A DNA stretch of 43,007 nucleotides from an uncultured bacterium. Lineage in GTDB: Bacteria; Patescibacteriota; Minisyncoccia; Phycocordibacterales; UBA5272. The stretch spans positions 1-43,007 of the forward strand of contig CAILKS010000022.1 of NCBI GenBank assembly GCA_903834855.1. The letters run 5' to 3'. Every line of letters starts with the position of its first letter. The stretch's first letter is position 1. The notes below the pieces were generated by a model, which had not been told where the DNA came from, made no database searches, and saw only the letters and a program-made list of their open reading frames with translations. The position numbers and the translations under genes are program-made. This document shows, piece after piece, positions 2,729 to 25,650 of the stretch.

Positions 2729-5700
2729 ATGTTCATCCATCTCCGTAATCATACCCACTACTCCCTGCTCAAGGCCCTGCCAAAGGTGAAGGAACTTATT
2801 TCTGCTGCTAAAAATAATAAAATGGGATATGTTGCCATAACAGATTACAGTAACATGTACGGTACTATTGAATTTTTTTCAAAGTGTAAAAAGGAAAAAA
2901 TAAAACCAATAATTGGAGTTGAGTTCTCTCTTATTTTTAACGAAAGAACTTTCCAAACAATATTGATCGCTCGGACCTTAGAGGGGTACAAAAATTTAAT
3001 GAGAATAGTCTCGATTGTAAACGTAGATAATCCACTTAATCCAACCCTTAAAGAAGAGACTCTTGTAACTTACAAAAACGGCTTAACAGTTCTCTCTGGT
3101 GGTGTTAGTGGTGACATTAGTAATCTACTTGTAATAAATGAAAAAGATGCCGACTCACGACTTCTATTTTATAAAGAACATTTTGGTGATAATTTTTATC
3201 TAGAAATAAATCCACAAACTGGTATGGACCGTGGTGTTGAAATGCGCGATAAGACTATAGAGTATGCAAGAAAAACAAACACTCCCCTGGTGGCCACATT
3301 CAATACTCACTATATACATGATGCTGATAAAGCAGCTCATAAAACTCTTTACATGGTTCATGGAGATTTACATTCATCTGATGAATACAATCATCTGTTT
3401 CAAAAAGATTCATTTGCCTTTGTAGATACAGACACTGCTAAAAAAATATTTGCAGATACCCCTGACGCAATTTCAAATACTGTAAAAATTGCAGAAAGCT
3501 GCGAACTGGAAATCCCTCTTGGCGACTGGGTGTTTCCAAATATTGAACACAAGAAAAGTTACAATGAGGACTTAAGAGATCTAGCATACGAGGGTTTAGA
3601 AATTAGAAAAATGGAGTTAACTGATATTGTAAAAACTCGATTAGAGTATGAATTAAAAGTTATTGCAGATAAGGGTTATTCCCCTTATTTTTTGGTAGTT
3701 TATGACCTTTTACGATTTTCTCGAGAGAACGACATCCTCACAAACATTAGAGGTTCTGTTGCTGGTTCTTTGGTGACTTATCTTCTTAGAATTACAAAAT
3801 GCGATCCACTCGCATATAAACTTCCGTTTGAAAGATTCCTAAATCCTGAGAGACCTTCGGCACCGGACATCGATATGGATTATGCAGATACTCGTCGTGA
3901 TGAAGTTATTGATTATGCTCGTCGTAAATATGGAATAGATAATGTAGCTCAGATAGGAACATTCGGAACAATGATGGCACGTGGTGCTGTGAAAGATGTA
4001 GCTCGTGCAATGAAATATCCATACGTTGTTGGTGACCGTATTAGTAAATTAATTCCAATGCCAAAACAAGGATTCCCTGTGACTATAAAAGGTGCTCTAG
4101 AAGACATCCCAGAGCTTAAAGAATTGTATGACACAGACCGTGAGGTGCAAATAATTTTAGACATGGCACAAAAAGTTGAAGGATGTGCCAGACACATTTC
4201 CGTCCACGCTGCGGGAACAGTTATATCCCCTGCTCCACTTTGGGAATGGACACCTATACAAAAAGATCCAAAAGGTGGAAAAATAATTACTCAGTACGAT
4301 ATGTACACAATTGAAGATGCTGGACTGCTAAAGTTTGATTTTCTAGGAATTAGAAACTTAACCATATTGGGAGATGCGATTAAAATTGCAAAAGAAAATT
4401 ATAACATTGATGTAGATATAGAGGAGGTATCATTATCAGATGCAAAAACTTTTGAAATGTTATCTCGTGGCGAGACTATGGGATTATTCCAATTAAATGG
4501 TTCTGGTATGACAAGATTTTTGAAAGAACTAAAACCTAACGCTATCTTTGACATTAATGCCATGGTGGCCTTATATCGTCCTGGACCGCTAGAAATGATT
4601 CCTGAATACATAAGACGTAAACATGATCCATCACTCATCTCTTATCTTGACCCAAGACTAGAACAAATACTAGACCAATCTTTTGGAGTTATCGTCTACC
4701 AAGATGATGTTATGCTTATAGCCATTCATTTGGCTGGATATTCTTGGCTTGAGGCAGATAAATTACGTAAAGCTATGGGTAAAAAAATACCCGCAGAAAT
4801 GCAAGCGCAAAAAGAAAAACTATTAGCTGGATTCGTAGAGCATGGGCTGTCTGTAAAAAAGGGACAGAAGCTTTGGGAATTAATTGAGCCGTTTGCTGCA
4901 TATGGTTTTAACAAATGTTTAACTGGAGATACAAAAATTGCATCTGCAGAGACTGGCGAGATTCTAACAATAAGAGAAATATATTCCAATAATTTAAAAC
5001 CTAAATTATTAAGTTTGGGGAATGATGGCCTGCTTCAAAATAAAAAAATTACTGCAGTACTTGAAAATGGTATAAAAAATATTTATGAATTAAAAACTAG
5101 ATCTGGAAGAATAATTAGAGCAACGGGTAATCACCCTCTATTAACATTTAGTAAATGGAAAAATCTTGATGAAATTAAATCTGGTGAACGTATAGCCGTA
5201 CCCCGTAATTTATCGAGTCTAATCGGTAATGTAAAAGAAAAAGAAAAAGCTGCAATACTGGGATATTTAATATCAGAAGGTAATCTCTGCCACCCACATG
5301 GTATTTATTTCTATTCAACACAAGAAAATGAAATAAAAGATTTTATAAAAAATTGTAATAATTTCGAAAATTTTAAATATACATTAGATAAGAGTAAAGC
5401 TGCTACTTCTGTTTATTGTGGCCAAATAGACCAGAAAAAAGGAAATAATCTAAATAAGTGGGTTGAAAAACTAGGTCTAAAAAACAAAAAAGCTACAGAA
5501 AAAAATGTCCCCGATTGTGTCTTCAAATGGGACAAGGAAACTCTTTCTATTTTTATAGGAAAACTTTGGCAAGGTGATGGTTGTATCAGTATAAAAAATG
5601 AACAGGTATTTTATGCTACGAGTTCAAAAGTTCTAGCATATGACGTACAACATTTACTTTTAAGGTTTAGTATTTTATCTACAATTCATGAAAAGAAATT

Positions 5701-7225
5701 TAAATATAGAGGAGGAATAAAAATCGGATTTACTGTAGTAATTTCTCATAGAGAAAACTTACGTAAATTTAAAAGTACTATCGGTATGTATTTAATCGGT
5801 AAGAAAAAAGAAGATTTGAAAAAATTGCTCACGTTAACTGAAAATACTTTAGATATCTCTGCGAGAGGAACTAAGAATATTATACCAGCGGAAGTAATGA
5901 TACATATACGAAGGATAATGTTAGAAAAAAATGTCTCTGTTAAAAAAATATCTAAAGATACTGCTCTTTCGGAGAGATTATTCTCATATGATAAAAAGAA
6001 GACTGGCTATCAAAGAGCTGTAATAGAAAAGCTAGGAAAGTATTTAAAATCAAAGGAAATTTTACAAATCGCTAATAGTGATATTTATTGGGATGAGGTT
6101 GTTTCTATAAAAAAATCTGGTAAAGAAATGACTTATGACTTAACTATTCCACCTCATCATAACTTTGTTGCAAATGATATTATTGTTCACAATTCGCATG
6201 CTGCAAGCTATGGAAGAGTGGCGTACCAGACCGCTTATATGAAGGCAAACTTCCCTGTTGCATATATGACAGCAATCATGACTAACGAATCTGGTGATGT
6301 AGAGAAAATTGCTGAAATTGTTTCTGAATGTAAAAGAATGAATATAAAAGTTTTACCACCAAATGTAAATACTAGTGCAGGAGGGTTCTCCATCGTTCAA
6401 GAAGGAACAGAGAACGATGAATTTTCAATTTCTAATTTTCAATTTTCAAAAAATACAGAGACAAATGCAAACACAGATGCGGATGCGATTAGTAATAATA
6501 CAAGTAATGAAGAAATACTTTTCGGTTTGTATACAATTAAAAATCTTGGAGTCGATATATCAGATGCAATAATTGAAGAAAGAAACAAAAATGGAAAATA
6601 TAAATCTTTCGAAGATTTTATACTTCGTGTTACTCATAAAAATTTAAATAAAAAATCTCTAGAGGCATTAACTAAATGCGGAGCACTTGATGATTTAGTA
6701 GAACGTGGGGAAGTTTTAGCAAACTTAGAAAGTATTTTAGAATTTCATAAACATGTTGTAAAAGATAATGTGATGCAAGATAGTTTATTTGGAGGAATGG
6801 AGACTTCTTCTTTTGTTATGAAAAAAGCTCCCCCTGTTTCTCAAGAACAAAAACTTTCTTGGGAAAAAGATTTGCTTGGACTTTTCGTTTCTGGTTTTCC
6901 TCTTGACCCTTGGAAAGAAAAACTTGAAGCTCGAGGAATAGACATAACTAAAGTTCACCACGATACTCCTGATGGTAAAGAAGTTTCTCTGGGAGTCATA
7001 ATTGAAAATATAAAAATAACTATCACAAAAAAAGGTGACCAGATGGCTCTCGTCAAATTACGTGATTATAAAGGAACTATAGAAGTTGCTGTTTTTCCAG
7101 AAACTTACAAGAAATATAAATCACTACTTATAATAGATGTGCCACTTGTTGTTAGGGGGAAAGTATCGACTAGAAATGGTGAGAAGACTATAGCAATAGA
7201 TGAGGTTCGTAATTTACGACAGTAA
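2729..7225 (+). CDS. dnaE: DNA polymerase III alpha subunit (DnaE) interrupted by an intein
   Basis: N-terminal PHP motif (HLRNHTHYSLL), a GSVAGSLV-type palm, the FAAYGFNK|SHAASYGRVAYQTAYMKANFP fingers motif split by the intein, and a C-terminal OB-like region. Confidence 0.95.
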   Translation: MFIHLRNHTHYSLLKALPKVKELISAAKNNKMGYVAITDYSNMYGTIEFFSKCKKEKIKPIIGVEFSLIFNERTFQTILIARTLEGYKNLMRIVSIVNVDNPLNPTLKEETLVTYKNGLTVLSGGVSGDISNLLVINEKDADSRLLFYKEHFGDNFYLEINPQTGMDRGVEMRDKTIEYARKTNTPLVATFNTHYIHDADKAAHKTLYMVHGDLHSSDEYNHLFQKDSFAFVDTDTAKKIFADTPDAISNTVKIAESCELEIPLGDWVFPNIEHKKSYNEDLRDLAYEGLEIRKMELTDIVKTRLEYELKVIADKGYSPYFLVVYDLLRFSRENDILTNIRGSVAGSLVTYLLRITKCDPLAYKLPFERFLNPERPSAPDIDMDYADTRRDEVIDYARRKYGIDNVAQIGTFGTMMARGAVKDVARAMKYPYVVGDRISKLIPMPKQGFPVTIKGALEDIPELKELYDTDREVQIILDMAQKVEGCARHISVHAAGTVISPAPLWEWTPIQKDPKGGKIITQYDMYTIEDAGLLKFDFLGIRNLTILGDAIKIAKENYNIDVDIEEVSLSDAKTFEMLSRGETMGLFQLNGSGMTRFLKELKPNAIFDINAMVALYRPGPLEMIPEYIRRKHDPSLISYLDPRLEQILDQSFGVIVYQDDVMLIAIHLAGYSWLEADKLRKAMGKKIPAEMQAQKEKLLAGFVEHGLSVKKGQKLWELIEPFAAYGFNKCLTGDTKIASAETGEILTIREIYSNNLKPKLLSLGNDGLLQNKKITAVLENGIKNIYELKTRSGRIIRATGNHPLLTFSKWKNLDEIKSGERIAVPRNLSSLIGNVKEKEKAAILGYLISEGNLCHPHGIYFYSTQENEIKDFIKNCNNFENFKYTLDKSKAATSVYCGQIDQKKGNNLNKWVEKLGLKNKKATEKNVPDCVFKWDKETLSIFIGKLWQGDGCISIKNEQVFYATSSKVLAYDVQHLLLRFSILSTIHEKKFKYRGGIKIGFTVVISHRENLRKFKSTIGMYLIGKKKEDLKKLLTLTENTLDISARGTKNIIPAEVMIHIRRIMLEKNVSVKKISKDTALSERLFSYDKKKTGYQRAVIEKLGKYLKSKEILQIANSDIYWDEVVSIKKSGKEMTYDLTIPPHHNFVANDIIVHNSHAASYGRVAYQTAYMKANFPVAYMTAIMTNESGDVEKIAEIVSECKRMNIKVLPPNVNTSAGGFSIVQEGTENDEFSISNFQFSKNTETNANTDADAISNNTSNEEILFGLYTIKNLGVDISDAIIEERNKNGKYKSFEDFILRVTHKNLNKKSLEALTKCGALDDLVERGEVLANLESILEFHKHVVKDNVMQDSLFGGMETSSFVMKKAPPVSQEQKLSWEKDLLGLFVSGFPLDPWKEKLEARGIDITKVHHDTPDGKEVSLGVIIENIKITITKKGDQMALVKLRDYKGTIEVAVFPETYKKYKSLLIIDVPLVVRGKVSTRNGEKTIAIDEVRNLRQ
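4916..6193 (+). mobile_element. Intein (426 aa) with a LAGLIDADG homing-endonuclease domain, inserted in DnaE between ...YGFNK and SHAAS...
   Basis: It starts CLTGDTKI (block A), carries GNHPLL (block B) and two LAGLIDADG-like motifs (AAILGYLISEGNL and IFIGKLWQGDGCI), and ends NDIIVHN followed by a +1 Ser. The extein junction restores the conserved GFNKSHA motif. Confidence 0.85.
6422..6456 (+). repeat. Family-A heptad tract inside dnaE (TTTTCAA TTTCTAA TTTTCAA TTTTCAA AAAATAC)
   Basis: CAATTTTCAAAAAATACAGA (20 nt) is identical to the reverse complement of intergenic copy 22961-23006, and 19 of these nt recur in copy 7436-7474. It is translated as ...FSISNFQFSKNT... Confidence 0.7.
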
Positions 7226-21284: not shown

Positions 21285-22499
21285 TTAGATACGCTTATCT
21301 CGTAAGCTTTTGTGGTAACCAATAGCAAATCTATGTGCCTCCCCATTACCCAAAAATATTTCCTTTGTATGGTAATCCACATATTCTTTCCTACCTAAGA
21401 CCTCTTTTGGCTTGTGACGATCATCCTTAACCACAGATACACAAGGTATAGAAATACCCAATATCGCTAATGTTTTTTCTGCAGTTTGTTTATGAGCAAC
21501 ACCACCATCGATAACAATTAAATCAGGGAAGCGCCATTCTTTATGAGAAAATCTTCTTGTTAAAATTTCTCGTAGACCTGCATAATCATCATTTATGTTT
21601 TCAGGTAATTTAAATTTTCTATATTCATCTGTTACTTTTTCTTTTCCTTCAATAACTGTCATAACACCTACGCGAGAGGTTCCAGAAATGTGTGCAACAT
21701 CATAACTCTCAATACGAAAATTATTATCTTTAAATGAAGTTACATTATCATCTTTAATTAAATTAACATCTTTAATATGATCAATCGCAAAAAGTGTATT
21801 ACGCACCTTAGCAGCTTTTTCAAATAAATGTTTCTTTGCATAATCATTCATTTCTTTTTCTAAAGATTTCTTTATGTCTGTTTTTTTACCTTCAAAGAAT
21901 TTTCTAATATTAGAGATATTCTTTTTATATTCTGTTTCAGATATCAAACCCACACACACCCCAGGACAAAGTTTTATTTGAGCATTAAAACACATTTTAT
22001 TTTGATTAAGCTCACACTTATCACGATATGGAAACATTTTACGAATTATTTTCATCGCCTCTTTTAATTGTGTAAGAGAAGCAAATGGCCCGTAAACAGC
22101 GAGCGTTTCTTTTTTTGTAAATCGTTTTTCAAAATCGCGAATTCTAAGAGTTAAAACTCTTGGAAACTTTTCTTTAGTTATAACTACACAAGTAAAACTT
22201 TTATCATCTTTTTCTTTTGTGTTATATGTTGGGTTATTATCTTTAATCAATTTACTCTCAAGTAACAAAGCCTCAAGCACACTATCTGTTTCTTGGAAGG
22301 TCACATGGTGAGCGGCCGCAATCATTCCAACTAATCTTACTCCTCTTGTTTTTATTAAGTCATTAGAAAAGTAACTCTTCACTCTGTCAGATAGCGAAGT
22401 AGCTTTTCCTATATAAAGAATGTTATTTTCACTATCTCTAAAGAAATAAACCCCTGGATTATCAGGAAGTTTGGCTGTGGATAGCTCTTGCTTTTTCAT
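21285..22499 (-). CDS. uvrC: Excinuclease ABC subunit C, short form (404 aa, no C-terminal HhH2 domain)
   Basis: GIY-YIG (PGVYFFRDSENNILYIGKATSLSDRVKSYF), a UVR-like helix pair (...KEMNDYAKKHLFEKAAKVRN), and an RNase H-like domain (IESYDVAHISG ... IVIDGG). Confidence 0.85.
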   Translation of the reverse strand: MKKQELSTAKLPDNPGVYFFRDSENNILYIGKATSLSDRVKSYFSNDLIKTRGVRLVGMIAAAHHVTFQETDSVLEALLLESKLIKDNNPTYNTKEKDDKSFTCVVITKEKFPRVLTLRIRDFEKRFTKKETLAVYGPFASLTQLKEAMKIIRKMFPYRDKCELNQNKMCFNAQIKLCPGVCVGLISETEYKKNISNIRKFFEGKKTDIKKSLEKEMNDYAKKHLFEKAAKVRNTLFAIDHIKDVNLIKDDNVTSFKDNNFRIESYDVAHISGTSRVGVMTVIEGKEKVTDEYRKFKLPENINDDYAGLREILTRRFSHKEWRFPDLIVIDGGVAHKQTAEKTLAILGISIPCVSVVKDDRHKPKEVLGRKEYVDYHTKEIFLGNGEAHRFAIGYHKSLRDKRI

Positions 22500-22559
22500 G
22501 AGATATATTGTATAATAAAATGTCGCTTAATTCAACCAACACTTAAAAAATGAAGAATT

Positions 22560-22917
22560 GGAAGGGTTTTACGACACGGGCCTTTTATATCTTTTAGGAA
22601 AATAGGTTCCTGAAAGCCCTATAAAGGGATAACAGTACAAAAACGAGGTAGAGAAAAAATGGTTAACAACCAAGAAAATGGGCAGCAAAGCCCACAAAAA
22701 ACCGGCACCGACGAGTGCCAAACGGCTGAGACGATCAAAGTGGAAGTTCGCACTCCGGTGCAGAATTGCCCATCGGCTCGACCTTCGATGGCTGGAAATT
22801 ACCAGCCAAAGGGCTACCGCCTTATGGGCGATGGCCGACAATGGTAGGTGGTCAGCGGCGTAAGCCAATTTGACCAAAGGGCATCCTCACAGGTGCCCTT
22901 TTGTATTTCTTTTTTTC
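22560..22917 (+). ncRNA. GC-rich, hairpin-dense orphan locus with its own intrinsic terminator; an unassigned structured RNA, or alternatively a 62-codon ORF at 22659..22847
   Basis: GC is clearly above its flanks, so spurious ORFs are open on both strands. It contains many short perfect hairpins: GGTT-aaca-AACC, GGGC-agcaaa-GCCC, GGCAC-cgacga-GTGCC, GCAC-tccg-GTGC, CCATCG-n10-CGATGG, CTGG-aaatta-CCAG, GGCTACCGCC-ttatg-GGCGATGGCC. The terminator AAAGGGCA-n10-TGCCCTTT plus a T-run lies at 22876-22917. Confidence 0.45.
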
Positions 22918-22965
22918 TAATTAAAACGTAAAAAGTAGTCTTAACTGCAAGATACATCCAATGTC

Positions 22966-23006
22966 TGTATTTTTTGAAAATTGATAATTGATAATTGATA
23001 ATTAAT
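22966..23006 (+). repeat. Family-A heptad tract (CTGTATTTTTTGAAAATTGATAATTGATAATTGATAATTAA)
   Basis: Direct reading. It lies just beyond the uvrA stop. Confidence 0.8.
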
Positions 23007-23025
23007 TTAGTGTCCACTTTCAACT

Positions 23026-25650
23026 TTATAAACTCGCTTTTTTACGTTTGAGAACTTTCTTCAAATATTGTCCAGTATAACTATTAGTATTTGACGCCAC
23101 CTGCTCTGGATTTCCAGTTGCTACAATTTTCCCACCCCCTACTCCACCTTCAGGTCCAATATCAATAACATGATCTGCTGATTTTACAATATCCAAATTG
23201 TGTTCAATCAAAACTACTGTATTTCCCTTATCGACTAATCTATTTAATATTTCTAATAATTTAACTATATCTTCATAGTGGAGTCCAATTGATGGCTCAT
23301 CTAAAAGATAAATTGTTTTCTCAACATGGGGACGATAAAGCTCTGAAGAAATTTTTACACGTTGTGCTTCCCCTCCTGAAAGGGTCGTTGCTGACTGTCC
23401 AAGTTCTAAATATCCCAAACCTACATCTGACAAAGTTTTTACTCTGTCATAAATTGCTGGGATTTCATAAAAGAAAGTTAAAGCTTCTTCAACTGTCATA
23501 CAAAGTACATCATAAATACTTTTTCCTTTCCATTTGACTTCAAGTGTCTCTTTCATAAATCTTTTACCTAAACAAACATCACATTCAACATACACAGTTG
23601 GAAGAAAGTGCATCTCAACAGCAATCTCACCATTACCCTGACAAACTTCACAACGTCCGCCTTTAACATTAAATGAAAATCTTGATGGCTTCCAGCCACG
23701 GATTCTCGCCTCTTCACTTTCTGCAAACAGATCTCTAATATGAGTCCATGCACCAGTATAAGTGGCTGGATTACTTCTTGGTGTACGACCAATAGCCCCC
23801 TGATCAATTAATACAACGCGAGACAAATATTCCGTACCAGAAAATGATTCACAATTATAAATTTTTGCAGAACGATTACGGCGCTCCAATCTTGCAAGTA
23901 AATTCTTATATAAAATCTCATACATCAAAGAACTTTTACCAGAACCAGATACTCCTGTGATGGCCGTCATGCGACCAAGTGGAACATTCACATTCATATT
24001 TTTAATATTAAAAATATTACCACCAGTTATTCGTAGTGTCCCTTTATCGTGATCACGACGAGCTGGTATTGGAATTTCTTTTTCACCACGAAGATACGCC
24101 AAAGTCACACTTCCGGACTTATTTCTTGGTGCAGTTAATAATTCTTCTAAATATCCAGCCACTACAACCTCTCCACCGTGAACTCCAGCCTTCGGACCGA
24201 TATCGACAATATAATCAGATGCAAAAATTGTATCTTCATCATGTTCCACAATGATAATTGTATTTCCAATATCTTTTAAGTGAGTAAGAGTTTTTATGAG
24301 TCTTTCATTATCACGCTGATGTAGCCCGATAGTCGGCTCATCAAGCACATAAAGCGCTCCAACCAACTGTGATCCAAGTTGTGAAGCTAATCGTATACGC
24401 TGAGCTTCTCCGCCTGAGAGCGTGTCAGCTTTTCTATTTAATGCTAAATAATTTAATCCGACATTTAACATAAATTTTAATCTGGATTCTATTTCTTTTA
24501 TTACGACAGCTGCAATCTCTTGTTCTTTTTTAGAAAGTGGGAGTCTTTCAAAATAAGTTAATGCATCTTGTATTGAAAGTGCAGTTATATCTACTATATT
24601 TATTTTTTCTACATCATCTAAAAAGACATTTAATGCCTCTGGTCTTAAACGTTTACCAAAACATACATCACACTCATCTAATCCACCAAAATATTTTGTA
24701 CCCAAACCATTACAAGATGGGCACGCACCGTATGGAGAGTTGAAAGAAAATAAACGAGGTTCAATTTCTGGAAATGAAAATCCACAATTAGCACAAGAAA
24801 ACTTATTACTCATGATTGTTTTATCACCAAGTATTTCTACTTCGAGTAACCCATTTGATTCGTGTAATGCCCTTTCAATAGCTTCAGACAATCTTATCAT
24901 TGCATCTTTTTCTGTATGTTTATTTCTAAAATCGTCCAGTGCGATAGAATCAACAACTATAGATATTTCATGCTTCTTAGTTTTAGAAAGTACTATTTGT
25001 TCACGAAGTGAATAACGTTTACCATCAACAACAGCTTCCGTATAACCCTTTCCGAGCATGTCATAAAGCATTTGATAATGTTCCCCTTTTCTGCCGCGGA
25101 CCAAAGGTGAAAGGATATGAAGTTCTGCATGAGAAAATTCGACACCAAGAATTTCTTTTTTATTCTTCTTATCATCAGCCTTTTTTACTTTATCTAAAAT
25201 AAAATGCATTATTTCCTCATTTGAAAGTTTCTGAATTTTTGAACCACACTCTACACAATATGGTTTACCAACACGTGCATAGAGAACACGCAGATAATCA
25301 TAAATTTCTGTAATAGTAGCAACTGTCGAACGAGGGTTACGGCCAGCTGATTTCTGGTCAATAGAAATAGCGGGAGAAAGTCCTACAATCTCGTCAACGT
25401 CTGGCTTCTGTAATTGTGTTAAAAACTGTCTAGCATAGGCAGAGAGAGACTCAACATAACGACGTTGTCCTTCAGCAAAAATAGTATCAAAAGCAAGAGA
25501 TGACTTTCCAGAACCAGACAGGCCGGTAAATACGATCATCTTGTGACGAGGCATTTCTACTGTGATATTTTTTAGATTATGTGTTCTAGCACCTTTGACA
25601 ATAATCTTTTCAATATGATCTATTTTTTCTTCTGTTTTCTTTGTATTCAT
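23026..25650 (-). CDS. uvrA: Excinuclease ABC subunit A
   Basis: Two ABC ATPase modules (GLSGSGKSSLAFDT, GVSGSGKSSLMYE, LSGGEAQR twice) and several CxxC zinc modules. Confidence 0.95.
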   Translation of the reverse strand: MNTKKTEEKIDHIEKIIVKGARTHNLKNITVEMPRHKMIVFTGLSGSGKSSLAFDTIFAEGQRRYVESLSAYARQFLTQLQKPDVDEIVGLSPAISIDQKSAGRNPRSTVATITEIYDYLRVLYARVGKPYCVECGSKIQKLSNEEIMHFILDKVKKADDKKNKKEILGVEFSHAELHILSPLVRGRKGEHYQMLYDMLGKGYTEAVVDGKRYSLREQIVLSKTKKHEISIVVDSIALDDFRNKHTEKDAMIRLSEAIERALHESNGLLEVEILGDKTIMSNKFSCANCGFSFPEIEPRLFSFNSPYGACPSCNGLGTKYFGGLDECDVCFGKRLRPEALNVFLDDVEKINIVDITALSIQDALTYFERLPLSKKEQEIAAVVIKEIESRLKFMLNVGLNYLALNRKADTLSGGEAQRIRLASQLGSQLVGALYVLDEPTIGLHQRDNERLIKTLTHLKDIGNTIIIVEHDEDTIFASDYIVDIGPKAGVHGGEVVVAGYLEELLTAPRNKSGSVTLAYLRGEKEIPIPARRDHDKGTLRITGGNIFNIKNMNVNVPLGRMTAITGVSGSGKSSLMYEILYKNLLARLERRNRSAKIYNCESFSGTEYLSRVVLIDQGAIGRTPRSNPATYTGAWTHIRDLFAESEEARIRGWKPSRFSFNVKGGRCEVCQGNGEIAVEMHFLPTVYVECDVCLGKRFMKETLEVKWKGKSIYDVLCMTVEEALTFFYEIPAIYDRVKTLSDVGLGYLELGQSATTLSGGEAQRVKISSELYRPHVEKTIYLLDEPSIGLHYEDIVKLLEILNRLVDKGNTVVLIEHNLDIVKSADHVIDIGPEGGVGGGKIVATGNPEQVASNTNSYTGQYLKKVLKRKKASL

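Follow-up and report, generated by a model that had tools for sequence, protein, structure and literature searches.

The 43,007-nt contig CAILKS010000022.1 (assembly GCA_903834855.1; hereafter the window) derives from Candidatus Nomurabacteria (candidate phyla radiation (CPR)/Patescibacteria), and DNA identical to it is present in GCA_026396035.1. It encodes uvrC (21285–22499, with GIY-YIG/UvrC domains) and uvrA (23026–25650), both on the minus strand, and the spacer between them holds a GC-rich island at about 22560–22917. A preliminary description, made from the letters of the sequence, had presented this island as an unassigned structured RNA with its own terminator and, as a second reading, as a small open reading frame (ORF). 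The gene arrangement and the composition given there agree with our measurements: both neighbors lie on the minus strand, the G+C content of the island is 0.475–0.575 compared to 0.25–0.37 on both sides (200-nt windows; about 0.32 around the island), and overlapping ORFs are open on both strands (102 and 44 aa on the minus strand, 62 and 61 aa on the plus strand). The plus strand of the island is T-poor. From comparison with a diverged copy in a sister lineage, we conclude that the island is probably a monocistronic small-protein gene of restricted lineage distribution, with a structured mRNA, located in a variable slot at the uvrA–uvrC junction.

Searches with Rfam 15 gave no match at the gathering score anywhere in the window, and the matches obtained at E < 10 over positions 22400–23100 were at chance level (best MicX, 21.3 bits compared to a threshold of 75). 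The 12 syntenic loci of relatives had no Rfam match either, and ARAGORN detected no tRNA or transfer-messenger RNA (tmRNA) gene across the whole window. These results concur with the earlier remark that the signatures of ribonuclease P (RNase P) RNA, tmRNA, and signal recognition particle (SRP) RNA are absent. For comparative analysis we used 80 uvrC-anchored loci of GTDB species representatives and four contigs encoding an identical UvrC, 84 loci in total. A search of this set with the island using nhmmer recovered the strain copies of the window (L001–L004) and one diverged copy, L006 (positions 3581–3957), which is located in the same uvrA–uvrC spacer and in the same orientation in a sister Nomurabacteria metagenome-assembled genome (MAG) with 93% UvrC identity. 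A scan of JGI metagenomes added one further contig (L085), which is identical to L006. The search for homologs in CPR genomes that had been proposed at the outset thus yielded one diverged homolog (L006 = L085) and none wider. Six-frame hidden Markov model searches and leader-motif searches of the uvrC-anchored loci returned nothing further, and the leader motif was seen a single time in the window and at no other fetched locus.

Two word-indexed searches covering 5.8 billion clusters, one of them with a two-sequence profile, found a single relative of the 62-aa protein encoded on the plus strand of the island, namely P0003, the L006 ORF product. Exhaustive comparison to 1.84 billion representatives with phmmer likewise returned P0003, its only other matches being three spurious ones to long repeat proteins. 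Beyond this ortholog, no relatives were found among ~15 billion proteins, and sequence searches with the protein against Pfam, NCBIfam, PADLOC, PHROGs, and PDB were without match. A viral contig scan and blastn against phages gave no match. Occurrence of the element is limited to two sister lineages of Nomurabacteria, a distribution that by itself argues against a housekeeping RNA, and the orphan status first ascribed to the locus, with no family match and one diverged homolog, still applies. A miniature inverted-repeat transposable element or other mobile repeat was rejected, as the island is single copy and has no inverted terminal repeats.

The ORF in L006 and L085 also has 62 codons and uses the same frame, start, and stop as that of the window. 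Gaps in the protein-guided alignment of the ORF consist of whole codons only, while those in the untranslated regions (UTRs) are of 2, 4, and 1 nt. The differences between the window and its strain variants L001–L004 are confined to the UTRs, with none in the ORF. The flanking genes served as neutral yardstick and have a dS of 0.64–0.66 and a pS of 0.43–0.44 between the window and L006. In the same comparison the ORF has a pS of 0.68, a pN of 0.26, and a dN of 0.31. Its pN/pS is 0.38 in frame 0 and 0.54–1.1 in the five other frames, and the amino-acid alignment score is 134 in frame 0 versus 30–105 in the others. Significance was assessed by keeping the window sequence and redistributing the observed substitutions at random positions. 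This randomization gave 22.6 ± 2.5 identical residues compared to the observed 35 of 58 (p < 5e-5), and 6.4 ± 2.4 synonymously changed codons compared to the observed 16 (p = 6e-4). The last 13 codons alone have seven synonymous changes where 1.8 were expected, and the C-terminal stretch GYRL[M/Y]GDGRQW* has 11 identical residues and one replaced codon. The terminal blocks gave no significant signal when read in the +1 or +2 frame. Where the N- and C-terminal blocks align without gaps, codon positions 1, 2, and 3 account for 10, 5, and 20 differences, respectively. Gene callers chose the 62-codon ORF in four independent assemblies, and the L006 copy is deposited at NCBI as 'hypothetical protein'. 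Openness of the frame is weak evidence at this locus, because T is scarce on the plus strand and both orthologs also have an open +1 frame (61 and 73 aa). The substitution pattern places the 62-codon ORF under protein-level purifying selection, and the ORF would be translated. A codon-level test had been suggested in the preliminary description as the means of telling RNA from peptide, and its outcome (pN/pS of 0.38, p < 5e-5) makes the ORF at 22659–22847 preceded by a Shine-Dalgarno (SD)-like motif, there listed second, the supported reading, with the conserved frame, the synonymous bias, and the randomization all in its favor.

The island folds far better than expected from its composition. 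The plus strand at 22540–22920 has a predicted free energy of −130.4 kcal/mol compared to −100.8 ± 5.4 kcal/mol for dinucleotide shuffles (z = −5.5; z = −3.7 for the minus strand), and its minimum free energy structure consists of ~11 local hairpins, GCAC-UCCG-GUGC among them. The hairpin density noted in the preliminary description is real. The 10-bp stem GGCTACCGCC/GGCGATGGCC exists too, but it is imperfect, with a single C·A mismatch and a single G·U pair. Calculated separately, the ORF part has a folding z of −4.4 in the window and −3.9 in L006, and the 3′ UTR one of −4.8 and −6.3, respectively. Conservation of structure between the two loci is unevenly distributed. The 3′ UTR reaches a structure conservation index (SCI) of 0.84 (z = −6.6 relative to column shuffles). 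In the leader the index is 0.44, which is not significant (z = −1.2), and in the ORF part it is 0.30. With two sequences available, the power to detect covariation is limited. Base pairs of the window mapped onto L006 through a codon-aware alignment were unchanged in 60 cases, changed on one side in 8, compensatory in 4, broken in 28, and gapped in 11, and pair conservation was only modestly above that of slid controls. A defined RNA architecture is, in this two-sequence comparison, conserved at the 3′ end only, and such a restriction to the 3′ UTR is as expected of an mRNA terminator module. Covariation, the other test suggested at the outset, is thus found as compensatory changes in the 3′ UTR hairpin and the terminator, while the body and the leader are unsupported. 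With no Rfam or ARAGORN match, an SCI of 0.30 in the ORF, and 28 of 40 changed pairs broken, the original headline of an unassigned structured or housekeeping RNA was not upheld.

The features that we assign to the transcription unit are compiled in the following table, together with the uvrC promoter, which does not belong to the small gene.

Features of the island and of the adjoining promoter region, with positions in the window
Feature	Position	Strand	Basis
Putative sigma-70-type promoter, TTGCTT-17-TATAAT	22488–22516 (TATAAT 22511–22516)	+	Sequence; 22500–22538 near-identical in L006
uvrC promoter, TTGAAT-17-TACAAT	22507–22535	−	Promoter scan; block conserved across relatives; overlaps plus-strand −10 box
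5′ leader, ~136 nt if the promoter is right	22523–22658	+	81% identity to L006; consensus fold
SD-like motif GAGG	22645–22648	+	10 nt before ATG at 22659; GGGG in L006, 6 nt before
62-codon ORF, MVNNQENGQQSPQKTGTDECQTAETIKVEVRTPVQNCPSARPSMAGNYQPKGYRLMGDGRQW	22659–22847	+	Ortholog with same start and stop; pN/pS; randomization; gene callers; GC3 (G+C content at third codon positions) 0.56
3′ UTR stem-loop, GGUCA/UGACC around GGC-GUAA-GCC (GNRA loop)	22849–22876	+	Compensatory pairs; SCI 0.84
Intrinsic terminator, AAAGGGCA-N10-TGCCCTTT, T-rich tail UUUUGUAUUUCUUUUUUU	22876–22917 (stem-loop 22876–22901)	+	Terminator scan; L006

Both structures downstream of the stop codon are structurally conserved. 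The outer stem of the GNRA-capped hairpin reads GCCG/CGGC in L006 with two compensatory pairs (U-A to C-G and A-U to G-C), and the terminator is kept in L006 with one compensatory pair (A-U to G-C). The plus-strand terminator of the preliminary description, a stem-loop with a T-rich tail, is hence present. At the other end of the unit, TTGCTT-17-TATAAT was read from the sequence while the promoter scan listed a weaker combination nearby, and with the former promoter transcription of the small gene would start near 22523. The promoter of uvrC is placed so close to its gene (TACAAT at 22512–22507, ATG at 22499) that the uvrC mRNA would be nearly leaderless. Identity to L006 is 66% in the ORF and 72% in the 3′ UTR, where ~57% is expected at neutral sites, and the leader exceeds both. 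Nowhere in the element is conservation higher than in the leader core (22560–22650), which contains TTTTACGACACGGNCCTTTTATATCTTTTAGG. A stem-loop at 22581–22628, in which CCUUUUAUA pairs with UAUAAAGGG around an inner hairpin, is conserved in sequence, and the two-sequence consensus fold of the leader has no compensatory pairs. Immediately before the ATG, ~10 nt are rich in A and unpaired, and an unpaired A-rich stretch follows the GAGG or GGGG motif in both orthologs. The GAGGT that had been placed 11 nt upstream of the ORF is present, with the spacing of its GAGG read by us as 10 nt. An additional upstream micro-ORF, of 15 aa in the leader of the window, was rejected because L006 has not kept its start codon.

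On the minus strand, two terminator-like hairpins with T-runs are located at 22678–22721, inside the ORF, and might halt transcription that runs on from uvrA. Since the T-run after the first of them is not conserved in L006, they probably arise as a by-product of hairpins and A-runs on the plus strand.

Start regions elsewhere in the window look different. An SD motif is absent from 25 of the 28 other genes, and many of the 29 window ORFs have a −10-like box (TATACT, TATAAT, TACAAT, or TAAAAT) that ends ~3–9 nt before the start codon. Given the scarcity of SD motifs and the near-start position of these boxes, leaderless mRNAs look to be the rule in this Nomurabacteria genome.

The 62-aa protein is hydrophilic over its whole length and lacks a hydrophobic segment. 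Conservation is found in NGQxSPQxTxT..ECQ at the N terminus and in GYRLxGDGRQW-COOH at the C terminus; segments of the window-type protein include TGTDECQTAETIK, TPVQNCPSARPSMAGNYQPK, and LMGDGR. By structure prediction the protein is probably disordered. Three candidate identities were rejected. The C-terminal GDGRQW resembles the KGDGW motif of streptide-like peptides, a radical S-adenosylmethionine (SAM)-modified class of ribosomally synthesized and post-translationally modified peptides, next to whose precursors a radical SAM/SPASM maturase and exporter genes would be expected. This lead was not borne out in the window: Pfam scans of the 26 submitted window ORFs of at least 100 aa, together with the annotation of the context, found housekeeping functions only (ddl, FKBP, nrdAB, uvrABC, Mur ligase, FemAB, Tgt, and others) and no radical SAM enzyme. 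A type I toxin is at odds with a peptide that has no hydrophobic membrane-spanning segment and neither a PADLOC match nor a defence-system signature. Kinship with Cys-rich small ORFs found at the same junction in relatives (L007/L014/L011 and L010/L012/L023) was prompted by a C-terminal G-D/E-x-x-Q-aromatic likeness seen by eye, and was rejected on hhalign E values of 0.05 and 0.58.

Adjacency of uvrA and uvrC is found in 71 of the 84 uvrC-anchored loci, and the length of the spacer is bimodal across Paceibacteria, being either 7–50 nt or 200–2600 nt. Long spacers nearly always hold a lineage-specific ORF of 43–337 aa that is antisense to uvrA and uvrC (spacer examples are L005 2849–3615, L007 3456–4000, and L012 2737–3378), and each spacer gene that was inspected (L005, L007, L008, L014, and L023) has its own intrinsic terminator. 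Apart from the uvrC promoter and the end next to uvrA, the spacers had no DNA similarity to one another. At the protein level, all eight significant matches between spacers are on the antisense strand. Two small Cys-rich families recur in the slot, L007/L014/L011 and L010/L012, the latter with L023 added by eye; Cys-rich patterns in the slot are CxHxPxCxxC...CH and CxGCx5C...CH. L005 and L006 are equally close to the window. In L005 the uvrA and uvrC flanks enclose an unrelated gene of 162 aa, and the breakpoints are sharp, one just past the uvrC promoter and the other just past the terminator. In this comparison the island looks like one among many small transcription units that replace one another at the uvrA–uvrC junction, and the junction would constitute a variable gene slot. 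An integrase, an attC-like repeat, or another mobility signature was not seen at the slot.

We propose that the small-protein gene is transcribed from a promoter back-to-back with the uvrC promoter, which would give an mRNA of ~395 nt (roughly 22523–22917). In order, this mRNA would comprise a stem-loop leader of ~136 nt, an unpaired A-rich stretch with GAGG, the 62-codon ORF, and a 3′ UTR of ~70 nt made up of the GNRA-capped hairpin and the intrinsic terminator. The local stem-loops would most plausibly act at the mRNA level by stabilizing and ending the transcript, rather than as parts of a conserved RNA machine, and the unit may have arrived as an exchangeable cassette.

Several observations weigh against this reading. 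The ORF folds unusually well in both orthologs (z of −4.4 and −3.9), below the minimum of 60 random 189-nt sense coding segments of the window, which have a mean folding z of +0.32 (sd 0.99, minimum −2.8). At the C-terminal end of the coding sequence (22813–22837 in the window, 3666–3690 in L006), L006 forms the hairpin CCGUCUC-UACG-GAGACGG with seven perfect pairs in a shifted register, where the window has a mismatched helix. Four of the changes that rebuild this hairpin are synonymous, so that synonymous sites are not free of selection at the RNA level, and the pattern suggests local mRNA structure as the target of that selection. Hairpin density seems to be maintained without conservation of particular pairs, as might fit a role in mRNA stability or a second function of the RNA. 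Conservation is higher in the 5′ UTR than in the coding sequence, contrary to what an ordinary gene shows, and this hints at a function of the RNA. A gene with a long leader and an SD-type start is moreover atypical of this genome, as most of its genes appear to be leaderless and lack an SD motif. The composition of the codons is unusual as well, with G+C contents of 0.60/0.47/0.56 at positions 1/2/3 compared to ~0.45/0.33/0.2 in neighboring genes, and codon usage of the ORF looks foreign. The protein has no domain, no predicted fold, and no homolog beyond the L006 ortholog; its AlphaFold model, based on a two-sequence alignment, has a pLDDT (predicted local distance difference test score) of 56 and is without secondary structure. 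Finally, the comparative evidence comes from two diverged sequences, and the middle ~25 codons are near saturation, where a protein-guided alignment favors coding.

The excess foldedness of the coding region in both orthologs and the apparent rebuilding, through synonymous sites, of a hairpin in shifted register could also be read as signs of a bifunctional transcript, from which the 62-aa protein would be translated while the ~395-nt RNA has a second function, be it regulatory, as a sponge, or as a cis-regulatory sensing leader. The leader, whose core is the most conserved part of the element, also holds a composite stem-loop of ~20 bp. However, the leader is without covariation (0 compensatory pairs, SCI not significant), its motif is single in the window and found at no other fetched locus, Rfam has no match, no target can be proposed, and conservation near 22500–22538 is partly due to the overlapping uvrC promoter. 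We consider a bifunctional transcript unlikely. We are equally doubtful about the broader proposal that the locus encodes a bifunctional RNA and at the same time represents one cassette of an undescribed exchangeable slot in Paceibacteria, in which units are swapped from promoter to terminator at fixed breakpoints.

A purely non-coding structured RNA, whose open frame would be a by-product of T-poor, GC-rich sequence, is in keeping with a GC island in an AT-rich genome that folds with a z of −5.5 and has its own terminator, with the open +1 frame in both orthologs, and with a protein that is predicted to be disordered and has no relatives. It leaves unexplained that substitutions are codon-periodic and strongly biased towards synonymous changes in one frame only, and that gaps in the ORF are of whole codons only. 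The structure of the body, moreover, is not conserved between the two loci, neither Rfam nor ARAGORN gave a match, and the occurrence in two sister lineages only is unlike any housekeeping RNA. A non-coding RNA is on these grounds very unlikely. A non-functional remnant, that is a decaying foreign gene or mobile-element fragment whose apparent constraint is a two-sequence artefact, would account for the foreign-looking composition and for the unrelated cassettes that occupy the slot in close relatives, yet start, stop, frame, SD-like motif, leader, and terminator are kept in both lineages at a flank dS of ~0.64, dN is well below dS, and there are no repeats, extra copies, or phage or viral matches, which renders it highly improbable.

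Read as a small-protein gene, the island resembles other orphan small-protein genes in its short ORF, its own terminator and putative promoter, its restriction to a narrow clade, the predicted disorder of the product, and fast evolution under purifying selection. It differs from them in a GC3 of 0.56 compared to ~0.2 in the genome, in a leader that is more conserved than the coding sequence, and in a coding-region folding z of −4.4, which falls outside the range of other host genes. Dual-function RNAs such as SgrS/SgrT, Staphylococcus aureus RNAIII with delta-haemolysin (hld), and Bacillus subtilis SR1/SR1P are likewise structured stand-alone transcripts of a few hundred nucleotides that have an intrinsic terminator and encode a small peptide, whereas for the island no target or seed could be identified, covariation is absent outside the 3′ end, and there is no relationship to them in sequence or Rfam. 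In common with RNase P RNA, tmRNA, long SRP RNA, and 6S RNA, the element is a GC-rich intergenic island of ~350–400 nt with its own terminator; unlike these RNAs it matches no model, is found in two lineages, and has codon-periodic substitutions and an unconserved body. Variable gene slots and replacement islets between core genes are known, with integron cassettes as the extreme case. The uvrA–uvrC junction shares with such slots that unrelated small units occupy one junction in relatives and that the breakpoints between L005 and L006 or the window are sharp. It differs in that none of the mobility signatures named above was seen.

The main value of the analysis lies in a correction, as an island that resembled a missing housekeeping RNA is better described as an orphan small-protein gene. 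Because a GC-rich, well-folding, terminator-bounded island appears to be coding in this case, screens for RNAs in reduced genomes need a codon-level control. The finding adds an orphan member to a familiar kind of gene and has no bearing on a long-standing open question. The side leads that it offers are modest, namely the variable slot, the maintenance of hairpins through synonymous sites, and the largely leaderless genome. For the first, the uvrA–uvrC junction behaves like a hot spot and would be a convenient site for studying the turnover of lineage-specific genes in ultra-small genomes. For the second, an mRNA under protein-level selection appears to keep an unusual hairpin density through synonymous-site changes as well. 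For the third, a gene with a long leader stands out in a host genome in which most genes seem to be leaderless and SD-less.

Short tandem repeats are located immediately 3′ of the uvrA stop codon. The window has three copies of TTGATAAT at 22974–23000, and the equivalent site in L006 (~3445–3510), L005, and L010 has 9-mers of the GACTTTATG/GACTTTATA/GACTTTAAG type. At a distance from the island, the plus strand of the window encodes DnaE (DNA polymerase III alpha; 2729–7225), which is split by an intein with a LAGLIDADG homing-endonuclease domain, and directly upstream of dnaE a 119-aa member of the '23S rRNA-intervening sequence protein' family (PF05635; 2287–2646).

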